NCBI RefSeq assembly: GCF_048593235.1
Contig: NC_133618.1
Coordinates: 389,502,562-389,566,561, forward strand
Reading direction: 5' to 3'
Source: Sminthopsis crassicaudata
Lineage: Eukaryota
DNA length: 64,000 nucleotides
A program made the position numbers and the translations under genes. The first letter of the stretch is position 1, and every line of letters begins with the position of its first letter. The notes under the pieces are model-generated. The model was not told the DNA's origin, ran no database searches, and worked only from the letters and a program-made list of their open reading frames with translations. Shown in pieces: positions 4,005 to 63,369 of this stretch.

Positions 4005-4368
4005 TTTTTTTCTGTTTATTTTTTAATAGCTTTTTATTGACAGAACATGTCTGGGCAATTTTTTACAACATTGTCCCTTGTAGTCACTTCTGTTCCGACT
4101 TTTCCCTTCCCTCCCTCCATCCCCTCCCCTAGATGGCAGGCAGTGTTATACATGTTAAATATGTTAAAGTATATTCTAGATACAATATACATGTGCAGAT
4201 TCATACAGTTCTCTTGTTGCACAAGAAGAATTGGATTCAGAAGGTAAAAATAACCTGGGAAGAAAAACAAAAATGCAAGTTGTCTACATTCATTTCCCAG
4301 TGTTTTTTCTCTAGGTGTAGGTGGTTCTGTCCATCATTGATCAATTGGAATTGAATTAGATCTTCTTT
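4005..4368 (-). mobile_element. L1 3'-end fragment (marsupial type)
   Basis: Poly-T followed by CCCTCCCCTAGATGGCAGG...CTGTCCATCATTGATCA, homologous in reverse to the 3' UTR after the ORF2 fragment at 61450-61800. Confidence 0.8.
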
Positions 4369-15009: not shown

Positions 15010-15219
15010 NNNNNNNNNNNNNNNNNNNNNNNNNNNNNNNNNNNNNNNNNNNNNNNNNNNNNNNNNNNNNNNNNNNNNNNNNNNNNNNNNNNNNNNNNNN
15101 NNNNNNNNNNNNNNNNNNNNNNNNNNNNNNNNNNNNNNNNNNNNNNNNNNNNNNNNNNNNNNNNNNNNNNNNNNNNNNNNNNNNNNNNNNNNNNNNNNNN
15201 NNNNNNNNNNNNNNNNNNN
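15010..15219. other. Assembly gap (N run)
   Basis: Run of N. Confidence 0.99.
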
Positions 15220-16483: not shown

Positions 16484-16986
16484 AGCAATTTGGAACTATG
16501 TTCAAAAAGTTATCAAACTGTGCATTCCCTTTGATCCAGCAGTATTTCTCTTGGGCCTATATCACAAAGAGATCTTAAAGGAAAAAAAGGGATCCACATG
16601 TGCAAAAATGTTTGTGGCAGCCCTTTTTGTAGTGGCAAGAAACTGGAAACTGAGTGGATGCCCATCAGTTGGAGAATGGCTGAATAAGTTATGGTATATG
16701 AATGTTATGGAATATTATTGTTCTATAAAAAATGATCAAGAAAATGATTTTAGAAAGGCCTGGAGAGACTTACATGAACTGATGCTAAGTGAAGTGAGCA
16801 GAATCAGGAGATCATTGTACATGATGACATCAATATTATGACAATCAACTCTGATGAGTATGATGCTTTCCAACAATGGGATGATTGATACCAGTTCTAA
16901 TAATCTTGTGATGGAGAGAGCCATCTACACCCAGAGAGAGGACTATAGGAAGTGAATGTGGATCACGACATAACATTACTCACTCT

Positions 16987-18583: not shown

Positions 18584-18733
18584 NNNNNNNNNNNNNNNNN
18601 NNNNNNNNNNNNNNNNNNNNNNNNNNNNNNNNNNNNNNNNNNNNNNNNNNNNNNNNNNNNNNNNNNNNNNNNNNNNNNNNNNNNNNNNNNNNNNNNNNNN
18701 NNNNNNNNNNNNNNNNNNNNNNNNNNNNNNNNN
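18584..18733. other. Assembly gap (N run)
   Basis: Run of N. Confidence 0.99.
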
Positions 18734-32391: not shown

Positions 32392-34362
32392 TTGAAAATT
32401 GCTCTTCATTAATACACAATTGAACAGACAATTGATATTCCTTGTTGCGCTGTTTCTGGTCTAAAGCAACTTTAGAGCTGGAAAATTCAGTAGCTGGGGA
32501 AATGAGAAGAGCTGCCTTTATAGCCAATATGATCAAGGCTTTTCATTTATTAGTGGTGGACATGGTGGGAGTGGGTGAGGTGGGCACAGTAAGGGAGATT
32601 TAGTTCTAAAAGAGAAACTGGATGGGCAAGAACTTCATGGCACCTCCAATCCTACCTGAACTATGGGTGCTAGGTAGAAATCAACATCATACTATTTTCT
32701 TGGATGTGGAGATGTTCCTGAAAATATCAGGAATGATGAAAAAGTAAGATACATTTGCTGAAGATTACTAAAGATATGAATACTGAATGAATAGAATCCC
32801 AACTTGCATAGTCAGTACCAATTCTCATGACCTCAAATTCTCATCCTCAAGGATGGCTTTCTTCTGAAAACTAATGTTAAAGAACTGGATCAGAAGGAAC
32901 AGCTGAAATGAGATTTTAACTTTCACAGTAATAAATGATGGGGCTTCATTTAGATGTGAGAAGCTTCCCAACCGAGATGTAGATTGAGGATGACATTGAA
33001 AATGCCCCCATGTTTATGGTATGAAATATGGATTCCTGAAAATGCCTCCACTGGCTCTCTTCTTGTGATTGTCTTGGCTATAGAGTTGGACTTCTGTAGA
33101 TATGTATTGTGTTCCAAGCTTGACATGAAGTTAATCAAAACATTTGAAGAAAATTCATATCTCTAAAGAAATCTGACTGAAAAAAATTACTTGACTTCAA
33201 GGCAATTCAGAAATATGGCATATTTATTGAGACCATAGAACTTTGGCCTTTTTCAAGAAAATGTTTGGTTTTGATTTTAAGTGAAAGGTCAGAGTGAAAA
33301 GACCATATCATCATTGACTGGCTCCACTTTTGAGAACTTGACTGAGACTATAGTCACTGATTTTTACATACATAATCTAGATTCAAGGGACAATGGGAGG
33401 ACAGTTTGCTTTATCCAAGAATATCTTCCTTTTATTCTAAAATGAGAGTTGAGAAACTTCTATACTCTCATAACAGAGGCAGCAGAATACAGACAACCTG
33501 TCCGAATAAAACATTATTATTACTATATCAATATGGGAGATTCCTAGGCTCAAAACTTAACATAATGTCAGTGCTCATCTCCAATGACAACTCACCAGTG
33601 TCTATACATATAACCTATAAGTATCATCTTGCTGCATCTCCTATTAAAGATGTGTCTTCTTTTCTTTACTTCAACTCAAAATAGAAAGTTTTCTTTTTTA
33701 AGATGAGTGAGCTATTGAGACATCCAAACTTTTCATTTCTCTGTAAGGATAACTGATGACAGCTTGCTGGTTCTGTGCCAGATGTTGGTTTAGGTTGTAG
33801 TTCTGGATGATAATACCTCTCCTTTGTATCCACTTCAGAATAGCACATCTCCCTGAAATGACTTGGTACTTGAGAACAGAAACAAGTTACCAAGGTGGTG
33901 GCTATGGATGGGAACTTGAGGGAGAATTCCTCACTTTAATGACAGCTACTCAAGTCCATGGATTTCTAGACTCATCACTGTGTGGGCCAATAACAAGAAA
34001 TTAAACTCATTAGTGAGAGATGCCATCAAGCAAAGATTGGTGGTACTGCTGAATGAACTGACTACAGTGGCCTGCTAGATGACTTTTCTGAATTCTATAT
34101 GCAGCTCCAAAAATCAGCTAAAGAATTAGCTAGCTCAAGTTCATGTTCTATCAGATAATTTCCTCCTTTGTGCTTATTGTCATTGTAGTCTTATTCATAA
34201 CCTTTCCCTTCTAGAGGAGTAAAAGGGACAACTGAAATGGTGGAAAATGGAGGCAAGTCAACATTCCAGGCTACTAGAAGATAACAGCATTGTCCCAGAG
34301 TTACTAATATGAAATGTAGCTGACTTTTGGCTCAGAATCTACAAATATAATTCTTGAAGCCT
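32392..34362 (+). pseudogene. Heavily decayed PCDHB pseudogene
   Basis: Remnants in correct order: NRQLIFL signal peptide (~32420), GKFSVAGEM..FIAN (~32480), LVLKEKLD (~32600), YEIWIPENASTGSL (~33020), PRLKT (~33545), TKVVAMD (~33890), AIKQRLVVL (~34020), SQSY (~34290), FLKP (34351-34362). Many stops and indels. Confidence 0.85.
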
Positions 34363-34425
34363 GGCTAGCTCAGTTGGTAGAGCATGAGACTCTTAATCTC
34401 AGGGTCGTGGGTTCATTGGGCACCA
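34359..34425 (+). tRNA. tRNA-Lys(CTT) pseudocopy with encoded 3' CCA and a 9-nt T-arm deletion
   Basis: GCCTGGCTAGCTCAGTTGGTAGAGCATGAGACTCTTAATCTCAGGGTCGTGGGTTCA---TTGGGCACCA; anticodon CTT at 34392-34394. It differs from the vertebrate tRNA-Lys-CTT sequence only by four CpG transitions and the deletion. Non-functional. Confidence 0.9.
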
Positions 34426-34427
34426 TA

Positions 34428-34929
34428 TGTTAAGTGCCATTCTCACACTTAATTAATGCTAATCAATCCTTATTCCTAGGCCTGATCAGAGAGACTCTGG
34501 TAAATATAGTATCAACCTTACCTCTGTTTTGGAGTCCTCAGAAGTCCTCCAGCTGCTATCTTATATGGACGAAGTTTGAGCACAATAGAGCACCTGAGAG
34601 TTTTGGCACACAAGCTTAGACATTATTCACGTGGTTTACACCTCACTCTATGACCTCCTGCACTACCTTGGTATTGCTCCCCAAGGTCAAACTCCAAATG
34701 GAGAAAGAGATGGAAAAGAGAGAGAATCCTTCCTCTTCTGAGCTTATATAGGGTCTCTGACGTCACAGGTACAAGCTAATCGATGATGAAGATTACATCC
34801 CGAACTTGAGATTTCAGAGTGAGATTTTAGGATTCCTGCCATGGCTGGAGGTCCCACTCACAAAGGAAGTCCCTATGTACTCAACTCCAATCACATCTGG
34901 GGACCTCAGAGACTATTAACTTACTTACA
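34428..34929 (-). mobile_element. LTR (~502 bp) whose U5 end abuts the tRNA-Lys copy at the PBS position
   Basis: Minus-strand termini TGTAAGT...ACTTAACA, GATTGG box, TGACGTCA (34758-34765), TATATAA (34744-34750); then a 2-nt spacer and TGGTGCCCAA, a tRNA-Lys PBS start. Confidence 0.75.
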
Positions 34930-36873
34930 TCTCAATGGCGCTTGCCTGACTTTTCTATTGGACCCTTTCCACATAGTCTCACTGTCTTTTTTTGGATGAC
35001 TGCCAAAGGCTCTCAAGAAAATCCCTTCCTTCAAAATTTGAAAAAAGTTTCTTTGAAAAAAGTTAGCCAATTATAGGGATATTTTAAAACATATTCACCA
35101 AGAAAACCAAATAACATATATGTTATGTATACTGCATATACTATTCCATATTTGTAGTCTTCCCACCTCTCCAATAAAGGGAGGGAAGTACAATTTTTCA
35201 ATACTTTTTCATGGCCAAACTTGGTTTTTATAATTATTCAATGTTCAATTTTGGCAACAACAATAATAAACTTTTCTAAAGTGTTTGTTTGTTTTTTTTT
35301 ACTACTAACTGCTTAGAAATTGTGATCTCAGATCTTTGCCAATTTAGAAGGGATCTCTATTTCTATCACCAAACTGCTTGCTTCAATATCAGGAAGATTT
35401 TTGACATTCCCAAAAGTTCATTGTTGGTGATCTTAGTTTCAGGGATGGAGTAGTTGGTGCACTTATACCTTGACTAGCCTACATGTAATCAATATTAATA
35501 AGATGAGATATTAAGGAAAATTTTCTCTCAGATATTTAAAATAATAATATTTTACCTCAGGATATTTTCTTCTTATATATGAGTTTTTCTTTCACTTTTT
35601 TAAAATTCATGAACCTAGTATTTTTGAGGATTTTTGTTCCCTCTTGGATATTTTACAAACAAAGCATTTTTGCTCATTGCCACCAAATGCATTGTGACTG
35701 TGCAATGGATAAGGGGAAATATTTCTCTTATAAAAAGTCAACTTATAAAAACTACATAAAGATTCCCTCTATCTAATTAAAAAGAGCATATTAATGTCTT
35801 ATTGAGGGAGAAACTGACTGTTACCTTCAGAAACTAAAATTGACAAAAATGTTAAAATGAGAGTTTATAGCCATATTCAGACATTAACAGAATATTCTGG
35901 TTATGAATAATTTATGAATAATTAATTTTCCTGTAAACCAAGTTCTACATTATTTCACTTTTCTAATTAGCCAACAATTTGAAAGTAACATACAATTTAT
36001 TTTTAGTAGTTTTATAGTCAAAGCTCAGACATAAACCACTTTTCATGTTATTAAGCTTATTTTGTGAAATTACTTTTTAGGATTTTAAACATTTTTAGTC
36101 ATTGACACTAGTTTCATGGTGACTGTGCAATGGATAAGTGAAAATAGTCTACTTCCCCAAAAAGTTAACTAAGAACATAGAATAACATAATTTTAACTAA
36201 TTATAATTTTCCATAAAATATTAACACATCTTAAGAAAAGTAATCAACAGTATTAGTATAACTTGTGGAAAAGAAAAGTAAAGTTTAGAGCAAGAATTTT
36301 AAAAAAGTAACCCAAGTTAATATTTGGTTAAAAAAAAAAAAACTTTCAAATGTTATTGTATTCTATGTTCCCTAAACTCAAAAACTACCTTGAAATTGTT
36401 CGATGCTTAATTGTGTTACATTGTAATCTGCATCTAGTTTATTTCAATCATCTTTATGAGCGATTTTTAAGAGTTTATCAGCTCAAATTGTAAAAGGTCT
36501 TATTATGATTATGTAGGCATGGAAATTAACAATATTTAATGGAACTTCAGGTCCAATACAGAAAATTAACATATTTTATCTTCTCAAAATAATTCTGCTA
36601 ACTTTCTCAAGTATTACTTTTAATCACTTCTATGAACTTAAAAAAGCATAATTTATCGACATTGTTTAATTTTCTACTTTATATAGATAAATTAAATGTA
36701 GAGCTGCAAACAAATTACTTTTTTGCCTTAGACTTTATTATCCTTAGTGAAGTGAAATAAAGAAGTGAACAAAAAATCAGGGGAAAATCTGAATGAACAA
36801 TGAAAACTAGAGTTTAGTTGGATTTAATTCCATTCAATTAAAAGATAAAAATAAATTAAAATGACTGATTTTT

Positions 36874-58734: not shown

Positions 58735-58883
58735 NNNNNNNNNNNNNNNNNNNNNNNNNNNNNNNNNNNNNNNNNNNNNNNNNNNNNNNNNNNNNNNNNN
58801 NNNNNNNNNNNNNNNNNNNNNNNNNNNNNNNNNNNNNNNNNNNNNNNNNNNNNNNNNNNNNNNNNNNNNNNNNNNNNNNNNNN
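58735..58883. other. Assembly gap (N run)
   Basis: Run of N. Confidence 0.99.
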
Positions 58884-59589: not shown

Positions 59590-59882
59590 GAATAATTGTT
59601 CATCAAATTAAAAAGCTTTTGCACAAACAAAACTAATGTAAACAAGATTAGAAGGGAAGTAACAAATTGGGAAAACATTTTTACAGTTAAAGGTTCTGAT
59701 AAAGGCCTCATCTCCAAAATATACAGAAAATTGACTTTTAATTTACAAGAAATCAAGCCATTCTCCAATTGATAAATGGTCAAAGGATATGAACAGACAA
59801 TTCTCAGATGATGAAACTGAAACTATTTCCACCCATATGAAAGAATGTTCCAAATCACTATTGATCAGAGAAATGCAAATTA
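59590..59882 (+). mobile_element. Host L1, 5' part (ORF2 fragment)
   Basis: IKLKSFCTNKTN...[18 protein letters not shown]2 motifs; ends at TSD AGAGAAATGCAAATTA (59867-59882). Confidence 0.88.
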
Positions 59883-60914
59883 TTTTTATTTCTTTTTTTT
59901 AATTAATTTTATAATTATACATTTTTGACAGTATATATACATGAGTAATTTTTATAACATTATCCCTTGTATTCATTTTTCCAAATTTTCCCCTCCCTTC
60001 CTCTACTCCTTCCCCTAGGTGATGGGCAATCCCATACATTTTACATGTGTTACAATATAACCTAGATATAATATATGTAAATCCAATTTTCTTGTTGCAC
60101 GTTAAGTATTGGATTCCGAAGGTATAAGTAACCTGGGTAGATAGACAGTAGTGCTAATATTTTACATTCAATTCCCAGTATTCTTTCCCTCGGTGTAGCT
60201 GTTTCTGTCCATCACTGATCAGCTGGAAGTGAGTTGGATCTTCTTTATGTTAAGATATCCACTTCCATCAGAATACATCTTCATACAGTATTGTTGTTGA
60301 AGTGTATAGTGATCTTCTAGTTCTGATCATTTCAATCAGCATCAGTTCATGCAAGTCTCTCCAAACCTTTCTGAATTCATCCTGCTGGTCATTTCTTACA
60401 GAACAATAATATTCCATAGCCTTCATATACCATAATTTACCCAACCATTCTTCAATTGATGGACATCCATTCATCTTCCAGTTTCTAGCCACTACAAAAA
60501 GAGCTGCTACAAACATTTTGGCACACACAGGTCCCTTTTCCCTATTTAGTATTTCTTTGGGATATAAACCCAGTAGTAGCACTGCTAGATCAAAGGGTAT
60601 GCACAGTTTGATAACTTTTTGGGCATAGTTCCAAATTGCTCTCCAGAATGGTTGGATTCTTTCACAGCTCCACCAACAATGTATTAGTGTCCCAGTTTTC
60701 CCACATCCCCTCCAACATTCATCATTATTTGTTCCTGTAATCTTAGCCAATCTGACAGGTGTGTAGTGATATCTCAGAGTTGTCTTAATTTGCATTTCTC
60801 TGATCAGTAGTGATTTGGAACACTCTTTCACATGAGTGGAAATAGTTTCAATTTCATTATCTGAGAATTGTCTGTTCATATCCTTTGATCATTTATCAAT
60901 TGGAGAATGGTTTG
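59883..60914 (-). mobile_element. 5'-truncated L1 inserted in antisense into the host L1, 16-bp TSD
   Basis: T-rich tail at the left end; ORF 60268-60879 is the ORF2 C-terminus; flanked by AGAGAAATGCAAATTA at 59867-59882 and 60915-60930. Confidence 0.9.
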
Positions 60915-61812
60915 AGAGAAATGCAAATTAAGACAACTCCGAGATACCACTATATACCTGTAAGATTGGCTAAGATGACAGGAACAAATAATGATGAATG
61001 TTGGAGGGGATGTGGAAAAACTGGGACACTAATACATTGTTGGTGGAGTTGTGAAAGAATCCAACCATTCTGGAGAGCAATCTGGAATTATGCCCCAAAA
61101 GTTATCAAACTGTGCATACCCTTTGATCCAGCAGTGCTACTATTGGGCTTATGTCCCAAGGAAATACTAAAGAGGGGAAAGGGACCTGTGTGTGCCAAAA
61201 TGTTTTGTAGCAGCTCTTTTTGTAGTGGCTAGAAACTGGAAGATGAATGGATGTTCATCAACTGGAGAATGGTTGGGTAAATTATGGTATATGAAGGCTA
61301 TGGAATATTATTGCTCTGTAAGAAATGACCAGCAGGATGAATTCAGAAAGGTTTGGAGAGACTTGCATGAACTGATGCTGATTGAAACGAGCAGAACTAG
61401 GAGATCATTTTACACTTCCACAATGATACTGTATGAGGATGTATTCTGATGGAAGTGGATATCTTCAACATAGAGAAGAGCTCATCCAATTCCACTTGAT
61501 CAATGATGGACAGAATTAGTTATATCCAGAAAAGGAACACTGGGAAATGAGTGTAAACTGTTAGCATTTTTTTGTTTTTTCTCCCCAGGTTATTTTTTAC
61601 CTTCCCAATCCAATTCTTCCTTTGCAACAACAACAACAACAACAACAAAATTTGGTTCTGCACATATATATTGTACCTAGGATATACTATAGCATATTTA
61701 ATATGTATGGGAATGCCTGCCATCTAGGGAAGGGGGTGGAGGGAAGTAGGGGAAAATTCAGAACAGAAGGGAGTAAAAGGGATAATGTAAAAAATGTGCA
61801 TTTTATTTTTTA
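60915..61812 (+). mobile_element. Host L1, 3' part (ORF2 end plus 3' UTR)
   Basis: [12 protein letters not shown]...WRDLHELML continues the ORF2 that stopped at 59882; the 3' UTR includes a (CAA)n run at ~61624-61647. Confidence 0.9.
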
Positions 61813-61880
61813 ATTTCTAAATGCCTTATTGGTTTTCTTTCCTATATTTCTTTCTTTCTTTTTCTTTTTTGCTGATGTAT

Positions 61881-62006
61881 TTGGGGTTAAATGACCTGCC
61901 CAGGATCACACAGCTAGGAAAGGTTAAATATCTGAGGCCAGATTTGAAGTCAGATCCTCCTGACTTCAGGGTTGATGCTCTATCCACTGCACCAACTAGC
62001 TGCCCC
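61881..62006 (-). mobile_element. Marsupial CORE-SINE (WSINE1-like)
   Basis: Ends ...TATCCACTGCACCAACTAGCTGCCCC, the reverse complement of the SINE head. Confidence 0.88.
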
Positions 62007-62019
62007 ATCTTATTGGTTT

Positions 62020-62872
62020 TCTTTTTTTTTTTCAGTGCTATATATTTATTATAGTTTTTATTTACCAGATATATGCATGGGTAAGTTTACAGCACTGACA
62101 ATTGCCAAACCTTTTATTCCAATTCCCCCTCCCCCCAGATGGCAGGTTGACCAATACATGTTAAATATGCTAAAGTATAAATTAAGTACAATATACATAT
62201 AATTGTCCAAACAGTTGTTTTGCTGTACAAAAAGAATAGGACTTTGAGATAGTATACAATTAGCCTGTGAAGGAAATAAAATATGCAGGTGGACAAAAAT
62301 AGAGGGATTGGGAATTCTATGTAGAGGTTCATAGTTATCTCCCAGAGTTCTTTTGCTGGGTGTAGCTGGTTCAGTTCATTACTGCTCTATTGGAACTGAT
62401 TTGGTTCATCTCATTGTTGAAGAGAACCATGTCCATCAGAATTGATCTTCATATAGTATTATTGTTGAAAAGTATATAATGATCTCTTGGTCCTGCTCAT
62501 TTCACTTAGCATCAGTTCATGTAAGTCTCTCCAGGCCTTTCTGAAATCATCCTGTTGGTCATTTCTTATAGAACAATAATATTCCATAATAGTCATATAC
62601 TATAATTTATTCAGCCATTCTCCAATTGATGGGCATCCACGTAGTTTCCAGTTTCTGGCCATTACAAAGAGGGCTGCCACAGACATTATTGCATATACAG
62701 GTCCTTTTCCCTTCTTTAAGATCTCTTTGGCATATAAGCCCAGTAGTAACACTGCTGGGTCAAAGAGTATGCACGGTTTGATAACTTTTTGAGCATAGTT
62801 CCAAATTGTTCTCCAGAATGACTGGATGTATTCACAATTCCACCAACAATGTGTCCGTGTCCCTGTTTTCCC
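62020..62872 (-). mobile_element. L1 3' fragment (ORF2 end plus 3' UTR)
   Basis: Reverse-complement match to the ORF2 C-terminus (e.g. CATCAGTTCATGTAAGTCTCTCCAGGCC) and poly-T tail. Confidence 0.85.
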
Positions 62873-63369
62873 ATTGGTTTTCTTTTTTAAAAATCCTTAT
62901 CAATTCCTAATGACTCCTCATCTTGCCTCCATAGATCTTGTTGCAAATAACCCAATGAATCAAAAGAAATTGACAAATTGACTGAATGAAAATGTCTTCC
63001 TCATTCCATATCTGTAGTCCAACATTTCTTTGCTAAGATGGTGTAGGCATGTTTCACTACTATTTCTCTGAATTTCTGATAACTGGACACTATATATTGT
63101 TGCAAATTCTAACATATTTCAGTGTTGTTTTCTTTATTCTGTTTTGGTCATCATGTAAAATTGTTTTCCTGGTTCTGCTTAGTTCAACCAAGCATTTCCA
63201 TTTTAATATCCTTAACTTTCTGAAGTAGTTGTCTTTTGGTGGCATTATCTATAGTTGTCTTAATGGAATCAGAAGAAAAAGAACTAGCAAAATTTAATAA
63301 GAAAAGTAATGAAATTTAATAGAGAAACTTGCTTTCACATCTCAGTTCAAAAATTTACTATTTGTGTAT

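Follow-up and report, generated by a model that had tools for sequence, protein, structure and literature searches.

A retroviral long terminal repeat joined to a near-complete copy of mature tRNA-Lys in the Sminthopsis crassicaudata genome, one instance of a recurrent class

Ohshima, Okada and colleagues reportedly proposed in 1993 that the short interspersed nuclear elements (SINEs) derived from tRNA-Lys arose by way of strong-stop DNA, and insertions of primer-binding site (PBS) or tRNA sequence are known at the junctions of retroviral circles with two long terminal repeats (2-LTR circles), which occur as unintegrated circles in infected cells. During reverse transcription itself, copying of the tRNA primer normally stops at the 1-methyladenosine at tRNA position 58 (m1A58), and this plus-strand strong stop explains why the PBS is 18 nt long. 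In vitro, reverse transcriptase copies on into the primer when m1A58 is missing, and the resulting read-through complementary DNA is described as non-integrable (PMC8599865, 2021). The closest known case is that of the tRNA(Lys-3) inserts in defective proviruses of HIV-1 (human immunodeficiency virus type 1): that report describes inserts of 7-54 nt at deletion junctions in 44 defective proviruses, with position 58 changed in 5 of the 44 (PMC12657518, 2025). Here, we analyze a stretch of 64,000 nt from Sminthopsis crassicaudata (contig NC_133618.1, forward-strand positions 389,502,562 to 389,566,561; hereafter, the window). On its minus strand, the window holds a complete long terminal repeat (LTR) of an endogenous retrovirus (ERV), the spacer TA, and a copy of tRNA-Lys(CTT) that runs to the first base of the tRNA. 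We consider it likely that this unit is read-through plus-strand strong-stop DNA that was captured by end joining.

The order of parts in the unit follows the order in which a plus strand would be made. It spans the U3 5' end of the LTR family, the viral spacer, and then, on the same strand, a tRNA complement that goes beyond 18 nt to tRNA base 1. By inspection, the minus strand reads ...GGCACTTAACA, TA, TGGTGCCCAA, TGAACCCACGACCC...GCTAGCCAGGC, TTCAAGAA; the complement is an unbroken run from TGGTGCCCAA to GCTAGCCAGGC, which is its tRNA base 1 end, and TTCAAGAATT comes after it. The LTR (34428..34971, minus strand) is 544 bp long from 34971 to 34428, has a full U3-R-U5 structure of the TG...CA type with TGG...ACA termini, and belongs to an ERV family whose proviruses have a tRNA-Lys1,2 PBS. 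Its 5' end lies at about 34971, where the window reads TGGAAAGGGTCC and the family reads TGTAAGGGTCC, as judged from 29 aligned family flanks together with a full provirus whose alignment to the window LTR reaches 34967; the extent of 34428-34929 given by a first-pass annotation, made from the letters alone, was thus too short. The spacer TA (34426..34427, minus strand) joins U5 to the primer copy and is identical in the normal proviruses of the family. The tRNA copy (34359..34425) is a DNA copy of mature tRNA-Lys(CTT) that retains 67 of 76 nt, in sense on the plus strand and complementary on the strand of the LTR. No internal viral sequence lies behind tRNA base 1, and unique host DNA directly follows; beside the junction, this flank (33760..34358) occurs nowhere else in the genome, and it is not of ERV origin. 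The host flank beside the U3 end (34972..35560) has no polypurine tract, no proviral sequence, and no repeat in common with the other flank. The sequence and the Rfam tRNA model therefore bear out what had first been noticed, namely, an LTR followed after 2 nt by a near-complete, CCA-ended tRNA-Lys(CTT) complement on the minus strand. Specifically, the Rfam model gives 31.1 bits, against a gathering score of 29, to plus-strand positions 34359-34422, in which the T arm is shortened; ARAGORN found no tRNA in the window, as expected given that the T arm is broken.

As a reference for the tRNA copy, we used the natural full 76-nt tRNA complement at locus L042 of the same genome. The window copy matches L042 at 63 of its 67 retained bases. 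The four substitutions, at tRNA positions 73, 57, 17, and 4, are each C>T or G>A within a CpG, with one CpG left intact, and so the first-pass claim that all are CpG transitions holds against this reference. In addition, the CCA proves to be encoded, as had been claimed (TGG at 34423-34425, minus strand), and the copy has no leader or trailer; the template was a mature tRNA. What the window copy lacks relative to L042 is a 9-nt block, tRNA' positions 11-19 or tRNA 58-66, which leaves a gap site at 34415..34416. With CG on either side of it, the gap can be placed in three registers within a range of 2 nt, again in agreement with what was first described, and position 58 is lost in each of them; the 3' half of the B box is missing as well. 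A search for the same deletion elsewhere found no second place in the genome, the window being the only match to the gapped form, and all 98 other copies that we examined cross position 58 free of a gap. A jump is thus at least not the usual way. For the window, two readings of the gap are equally likely. In one, the polymerase, having copied 10-12 nt, would have re-paired the CG end in the T loop and skipped the methylated base; in the other, the 9 bases would have been lost afterwards by replication slippage.

The normal form of the family to which the LTR belongs can be recognized in the same genome (3.24 Gb in 8 contigs). An LTR search returned 771 first-look candidates, and 40 were scored, including 39 copies other than that of the window. 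Identity of these 39 to the window was 79-87%; 28 of them end within 3 nt of 34428, 3 run 9-13 nt into the PBS, and none covers the tRNA part or extends more than 13 nt into the tRNA. Copies L014, L016, and L021 read LTR-TA-TGGTGCC..., with an 18-nt Lys-type PBS and then a common leader. Likewise, L137, L138, L141, L146, and L147 have the LTR and TA followed by a Lys PBS and leader, which is the normal form of the window's family. A pattern joining the end of the LTR to the beginning of the PBS had 12 genome matches, comprising the window, 5 normal PBS-leader copies, and 6 that were unrelated or of other families. LTR homologs with a Lys PBS, on whose existence the first-pass annotation had staked its interpretation, are therefore present, in the proportion of five normal LTR-TA-18-nt PBS-leader copies to one whole-tRNA copy, the window. 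An inherited PBS variant (CCAGA or CCTAGA) occurs in four of the five normal copies, and the first 10 bases of the window have the tRNA's own CCCAA. Furthermore, a single provirus, L133, has L014 and L019 as its LTRs. The window LTR is 82-83% identical to both and has no similarity to L133 outside the LTR. This provirus has a target duplication at 5 of 6 bases and a polypurine tract reading ...aaaggggaTT|TG, and it encodes a zf-CCHC zinc knuckle, RVT_1 (reverse transcriptase), and rve (integrase). Its integrase is closest to PDB entries 5cz2, 3jca, and 7usf (E about 1e-36), which we take to be the integrase of mouse mammary tumor virus; named matches further down included human T-lymphotropic virus 2 and avian sarcoma virus. 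Judged by these similarities, the window LTR appears to belong to a beta-like (class II) ERV family primed by tRNA-Lys1,2.

The first-pass annotation had treated the unit as a singular event. Our results place it in a recurrent class of about 100 loci with like architecture in the same genome. The class pattern required 35 nt or more of a CCA-ended Lys complement and permitted 0-12 nt at the position of the window's gap; it had 127 genome matches and none in a reversed control, and 99 of the 127 copies were analyzed, among the 100 matches listed. The 18-nt Lys1,2 PBS pattern alone had 4123 genome matches, and the strict 18-mer fits 86 of the 99 copies. By this comparison of 127 with 4123, about 3 in 100 Lys1,2 PBS sites are read through. 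Nearly all of the copies analyzed have the signature of an LTR end, with CA lying 2-4 nt ahead of the tRNA complement in 96 of 99 copies. In 82 of 99, the upstream sequence is LTR-like and common to other copies, forming clusters of 57, 6, 5, 5, 4, 3, and 2 members with 17 copies unclustered, and within clusters the likeness ends at a common 5' boundary (e.g., TGTTAGG...GCTACA, about 465 bp). The tRNA part extends to base 1 in 44 of 99 copies, ends at bases 2-16 in 46, and ends at bases 20-35 in the remaining 9. Two isodecoders, told apart by covarying anticodon-stem bases, account for 65 and 11 of the 78 scorable copies. Finally, a tRNA-Lys3 read-through pattern, written from locus L069, had 38 matches. 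Locus L069 itself is a double read-through: its LTR is followed by a whole tRNA-Lys1,2 complement, 8 nt of a U5 end from another family with its spacer, and a Lys3 PBS, which in turn continues into a tRNA-Lys3 complement.

The class also carries a mark at the position where the methylated base would have been read. Methylation of the m1A type causes misincorporation. Because the class pattern left tRNA' positions 11-19 unconstrained, and position 19 lies opposite A58, the bases found there could be counted. Opposite A58, 98 copies have T in 70, A in 18, and C in 10, against only 1-3% of non-reference bases at the non-CpG positions 13-18. After shared junctions were collapsed, the counts were 62 T, 16 A, and 10 C among 88 (26 of 88 non-T). 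The 25 scorable copies of the "simple" kind had 20 T, 3 C, and 2 A, and the 38 Lys3 read-through copies had 33 T, 4 A, and 1 C at the same position. A transversion-rich excess confined to the base paired with m1A58 would be expected if a mature, methylated tRNA had been copied.

What lies beyond the tRNA part differs among copies and bears on how such molecules may have reached the chromosome. In 26 of 99 copies, window included, the tRNA part is followed by sequence that is unique among the loci compared. In 11, the element's own LTR comes next in inverted orientation, and it reaches the LTR 5' end wherever its start is recognizable (L041, L046, L068, L103, and L125). Since the inverted LTR runs to its own 5' end, the 5' end of the molecule was the U3 start. 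Perfect 6-bp target duplications, CATAAC and GTCAGT, flank L041, in which the whole LTR is inverted, and L046. These inverted-LTR forms fit a plus strand that folded back and copied itself to its 5' end, with integrase then inserting it by way of its two U3 ends. Another five copies continue into a direct repeat of their own upstream sequence, including the LTR-tRNA-GA-LTR tandem of L032. In L042, L060, L065, and L097, a U5 piece, a Lys3 PBS, and a leader follow, and these four are 98-99% alike over 1.4 kb, with differing junctions. The integrase-coding region follows at three nearby points, in L079, L081 (identical to L120), and L104. One common internal sequence comes right after tRNA base 1 in seven copies (L048, L074, L077, L078, L095, L121, and L129), which look, from their sequences, like a lineage that has the whole tRNA complement in its leader, with position 58 rewritten in each cycle. 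Most of the seven are 96-98% alike downstream; their U5 ends differ, and they have A, T, or C opposite A58.

Several individual loci have features of their own. The LTR before the tRNA copy is preceded by a polypurine tract and internal sequence in L043, L094, and L127, and a polypurine tract ahead of the LTR would make each of these a 3' LTR plus primer copy, the right end of an intermediate without the second jump. In L038 and L100, the tRNA copy ends near base 33-35 and a run of 13-19 A follows. A palindromic joint in L035 places the PBS start with the sense tRNA 3' end between two opposed U5 ends, and in L079, two LTR-tRNA units face opposite ways at a distance of 358 bp. In the context of proviruses L135 and L136, the young elements with tRNA inserts (L042 and L060) measure about 3.1 kb with both LTRs included, of which about 2.6 kb lies between the LTRs, and are probably non-autonomous.

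Our interpretation of the window unit can be set out as a series of steps. The plus strand would start at the polypurine tract and copy U3 to U5; during plus-strand strong-stop synthesis, reverse transcriptase would then pass the m1A58 stop and continue to the 5' end of the primer tRNA; and the dead-end product would enter germ-line DNA through end joining instead of the usual integration. We infer that the enzyme copying the tRNA was viral and not a host polymerase, that the second strand was supplied from the minus strand or by host repair, and that insertion at the window was integrase-independent. The anatomy of the unit, the normal form of its family, the fact that one architecture recurs after a variety of LTRs, and the excess of wrong bases opposite A58 are direct observations. 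As regards the fossil of a reverse-transcription primer proposed in the first-pass annotation, copying of a mature tRNA beyond m1A58 stands, given the TA spacer, the span from U3 to base 1, and the A58 mark; the jump across the T arm that it also proposed is only one of the two equal readings of the gap. The window element has no function of its own and is a by-product.

The flanks of the unit speak to the manner of its insertion. We found no direct repeat flanking it, including one of the approximately 6 bp expected of an integrase, which confirms the earlier remark that no target-site duplication is present. Approximately 600 bp of flank on each side yielded no genome match that spans the junction, and the join through a GCCT microhomology with a pseudogene, as proposed in the first-pass annotation, is therefore only putative. 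The flank on the tRNA side matches the window itself and three local paralogs at 67-68% identity, starting about 300 bp away, and the flank on the U3 side is unique in the genome except for an old short repeat. More can be read from the largest LTR group, in which the provirus junction is ...AAAGGGGGAGA|TGTTAGG (L135 and L136), with GA following the polypurine tract. Among 16 simple copies of this group with a readable TGTTAGG start, 5 (L033, L049, L067, L092, and L111) have GA before TG and no duplication, against a chance expectation of 1 in 16. Retention of GA before TG without duplication fits capture of an unprocessed end, the route that we propose for the window.

There are several points that weigh against this account. 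Some concern the window itself. The two bases before its LTR are TG (TA in the other register), compared with TT before the 3' LTR of L133, and so the sign of an unprocessed end is absent; together with the missing duplication, this means that end joining at the window is inferred rather than demonstrated. No empty site that would show a target deletion, microhomology, or the true end of the insert was found among the genome paralogs. Position 58, and with it any m1A mark, is deleted in the window copy. Furthermore, reads do not confirm the junctions; those for the LTR part yielded just short contigs, drawn from many LTR copies, with the unique flank uncovered. Other points concern the class. 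It is made up mostly of other LTR families, with 57 of 99 copies in a single cluster, and the family of the window LTR yielded no read-through copy besides the window's; a match at L134 was not among the copies analyzed. In addition, 4 of the 16 simple copies (L057, L082, L108, and L119) have repeats of 4-9 bp abutting both ends, and 7 have neither GA nor abutting repeats. A duplication scan of simple copies gave a score not clearly above that of shuffled pairs, and only exactly abutting repeats, identified by eye, were kept. Considering the five GA copies and the four with duplications, insertion seems to occur both by joining of ends left unprocessed and by a route that integrase assists. 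Lastly, these data do not tell whether position 58 was crossed by viral reverse transcriptase or by a host polymerase.

This last point leads to the strongest alternative, which we nevertheless regard as unlikely. A duplex of minus-strand DNA, with its tRNA still attached, and normal plus-strand strong-stop DNA could have been captured, after which a host polymerase with reverse transcriptase activity copied the remaining 58 nt during repair. This scenario is close to the strong-stop DNA model of SINE origin. Final sequence, U3 boundary, and the mark opposite m1A58 would all come out alike under it, and capture without target duplication already implies host repair. However, many class members switch after the tRNA to an inverted copy of their own LTR, to U5 pieces, or to the pol region, which amounts to template switching inside the reverse-transcription complex. 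Moreover, read-through by viral reverse transcriptase is documented in vitro and in HIV-1 (PMC8599865, PMC12657518).

A much less probable alternative to copying of the primer at this locus is that the complement was inherited from a mobile lineage whose leader already had the whole tRNA, and of which the window copy would be a truncated member (compare L074, L078, L095, and L121). Such lineages do exist in this genome, as the seven copies with one sequence after tRNA base 1 and the four young, 98-99% identical elements with tRNA inserts before a Lys3 PBS attest. Against this, all five normal copies of the window's own family have an ordinary PBS and leader, and the 9-nt gap recurs in no second genome copy. 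Unique host DNA abuts tRNA base 1, and inheritance would thus require a deletion that ended exactly there. Slighter still are the chances of retroposition by a long interspersed nuclear element (LINE) of a chimeric RNA in which the tRNA was joined to antisense LTR RNA. Retropseudogenes of tRNAs made by LINE-1 (L1) are common in therian genomes (PMC5322556), and an A-run does follow the shortened tRNA part of two class members (L038 and L100). Yet poly(A) is absent from the window unit, as are a T-run ahead of the LTR and a target duplication, and the unit's ends coincide with the U3 start and tRNA base 1, with the exact viral spacer between the two parts. Least probable of all is that the assembly is in error or that an LTR and a tRNA pseudogene happen to lie side by side; in favor of this stands the junction that reads do not confirm. 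Against it, of 43 sampled 31-letter words from 34200-34620, shares of 0.95 (run X1) and 0.93 (X2) occur in one study, 0.74-0.77 in a second (X3-X5), and 0.70 in a third (X8), the same architecture is found at about 100 other loci, and a CCA next to the family's own 2-nt spacer cannot be chance.

Nothing coding was found among the open reading frames around the element. A unit of several hundred base pairs occurs with 64-71% identity at 33112-34056 and at about 10 other places in the window (including those near 2245, 6559, 12274, 12729, 26291, 27013, and 53357), as well as in the neighboring DNA of L062-L064; from its sequence, it appears to be a local tandem family. Two stretches of provirus L133 (3477-4562 and 5457-6474) also deserve mention: the provirus contains a LINE-1 ORF2-like piece fused in frame behind the integrase core, and its segment 5457-6474 matches window repeats at 59601-62873, 16484-16821, and 4059-4368. 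Runs of N in the window (15010-15219, 18584-18733, and 58735-58883) make up 509 bases in total, and none is near the unit.

Viewed more broadly, this genome may preserve, although we suggest it only tentatively, a fossil record of reverse transcriptase read-through at more than 150 loci by strict patterns (127 Lys1,2 and 38 Lys3). Such a record would keep the misincorporation spectrum of m1A58 (about 70% correct, 18% A, and 11% C) and would display the fates of supposedly non-integrable products: end-joined LTR-tRNA units, snap-backs of the form LTR-tRNA-inverted LTR inserted by integrase with 6-bp duplications, LTR-tRNA-LTR tandems, and deleted proviruses, some of which went on to multiply while their leader contained the whole tRNA. 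The chimeras that the strong-stop SINE model needs would be those units in which the tRNA is intact. If this is true, the 44 of 99 copies that extend to base 1 are chimeras of tRNA and antisense U5 of a kind not shown before in the germ line, within the literature searched. In the literature considered here, primer read-through has been treated as a dead end that blocks integration (PMC8599865); the window element and its approximately 100 relatives entered the germ line and persist there. The class provides a natural in vivo readout of how often, and with what errors, a retroviral polymerase crosses m1A58. Chimeras of tRNA and LTR could also seed new repeats driven by RNA polymerase III (Pol III). 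When a "tRNA pseudogene" is annotated 2-4 bases away from the end of an LTR, the pair is to be read as one element and not two.

Comparison with known systems helps to define what the window unit is. It resembles the strong-stop model of SINE origin in having a sense tRNA-Lys followed by minus-sense retroviral U5 and R, and to that extent the first-pass view of a tRNA-plus-U5 SINE geometry was apt. It departs from the model in that it contains the whole LTR, U3 included, and not only U5, has lost half of the B box, is single, and has no LINE-type tail. The consensus A box and B box define a Pol III promoter of the SINE type, and here the gap takes the 3' half of the T arm and the B box. The gapped form occurs once in the genome, unlike a tRNA-SINE, and no SINE derived from the window unit was found, no dedicated search having been made. 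Like a solo LTR produced by LTR-LTR recombination, the unit is a single LTR without internal genes; however, solo LTRs keep their target duplication and have no PBS, whereas here the spacer and whole primer copy are attached and the duplication is absent. It shares with L1 tRNA retropseudogenes, including tailless ones, the fact of being a DNA copy of a processed small RNA. Those copies stand alone with duplications of 8-30 nt and are often 3' truncated (PMC5322556); the window copy does not stand alone, is continuous with U5 through the spacer, and has no such 8-30 bp duplication. With 2-LTR circle junctions the class has in common a U5, a spacer, and a tRNA complement of variable length, and L032 looks like such a junction; the window unit differs from these circles in having one LTR and in being chromosomal.

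The nearest comparisons remain those with which we began. The read-through products of the in vitro system (PMC8599865) contrast with the loci reported here in that the latter reached chromosomes. In the literature searched, from which most subscription journals fell outside our scope, a germ-line record of this kind, whole-tRNA units abutting host DNA, and snap-backs with duplications have not been described. The HIV-1 inserts are attributed to deferred (aberrant) second-strand transfer, and as here, the 5' LTR and PBS continue into the primer tRNA past position 58 (PMC12657518). The same architecture is found in the class members that continue into U5 and a Lys3 PBS, into the integrase region, or into the shared internal sequence. 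The HIV-1 inserts are somatic, arise in an exogenous lentivirus, and always lead on to viral sequence at a deletion junction (PMC12657518). The window unit, unlike these, has neither a second LTR nor a duplication: it is the fossil of a beta-like ERV in the germ line, in which the copy of the tRNA extends to base 1 and host DNA adjoins it directly.

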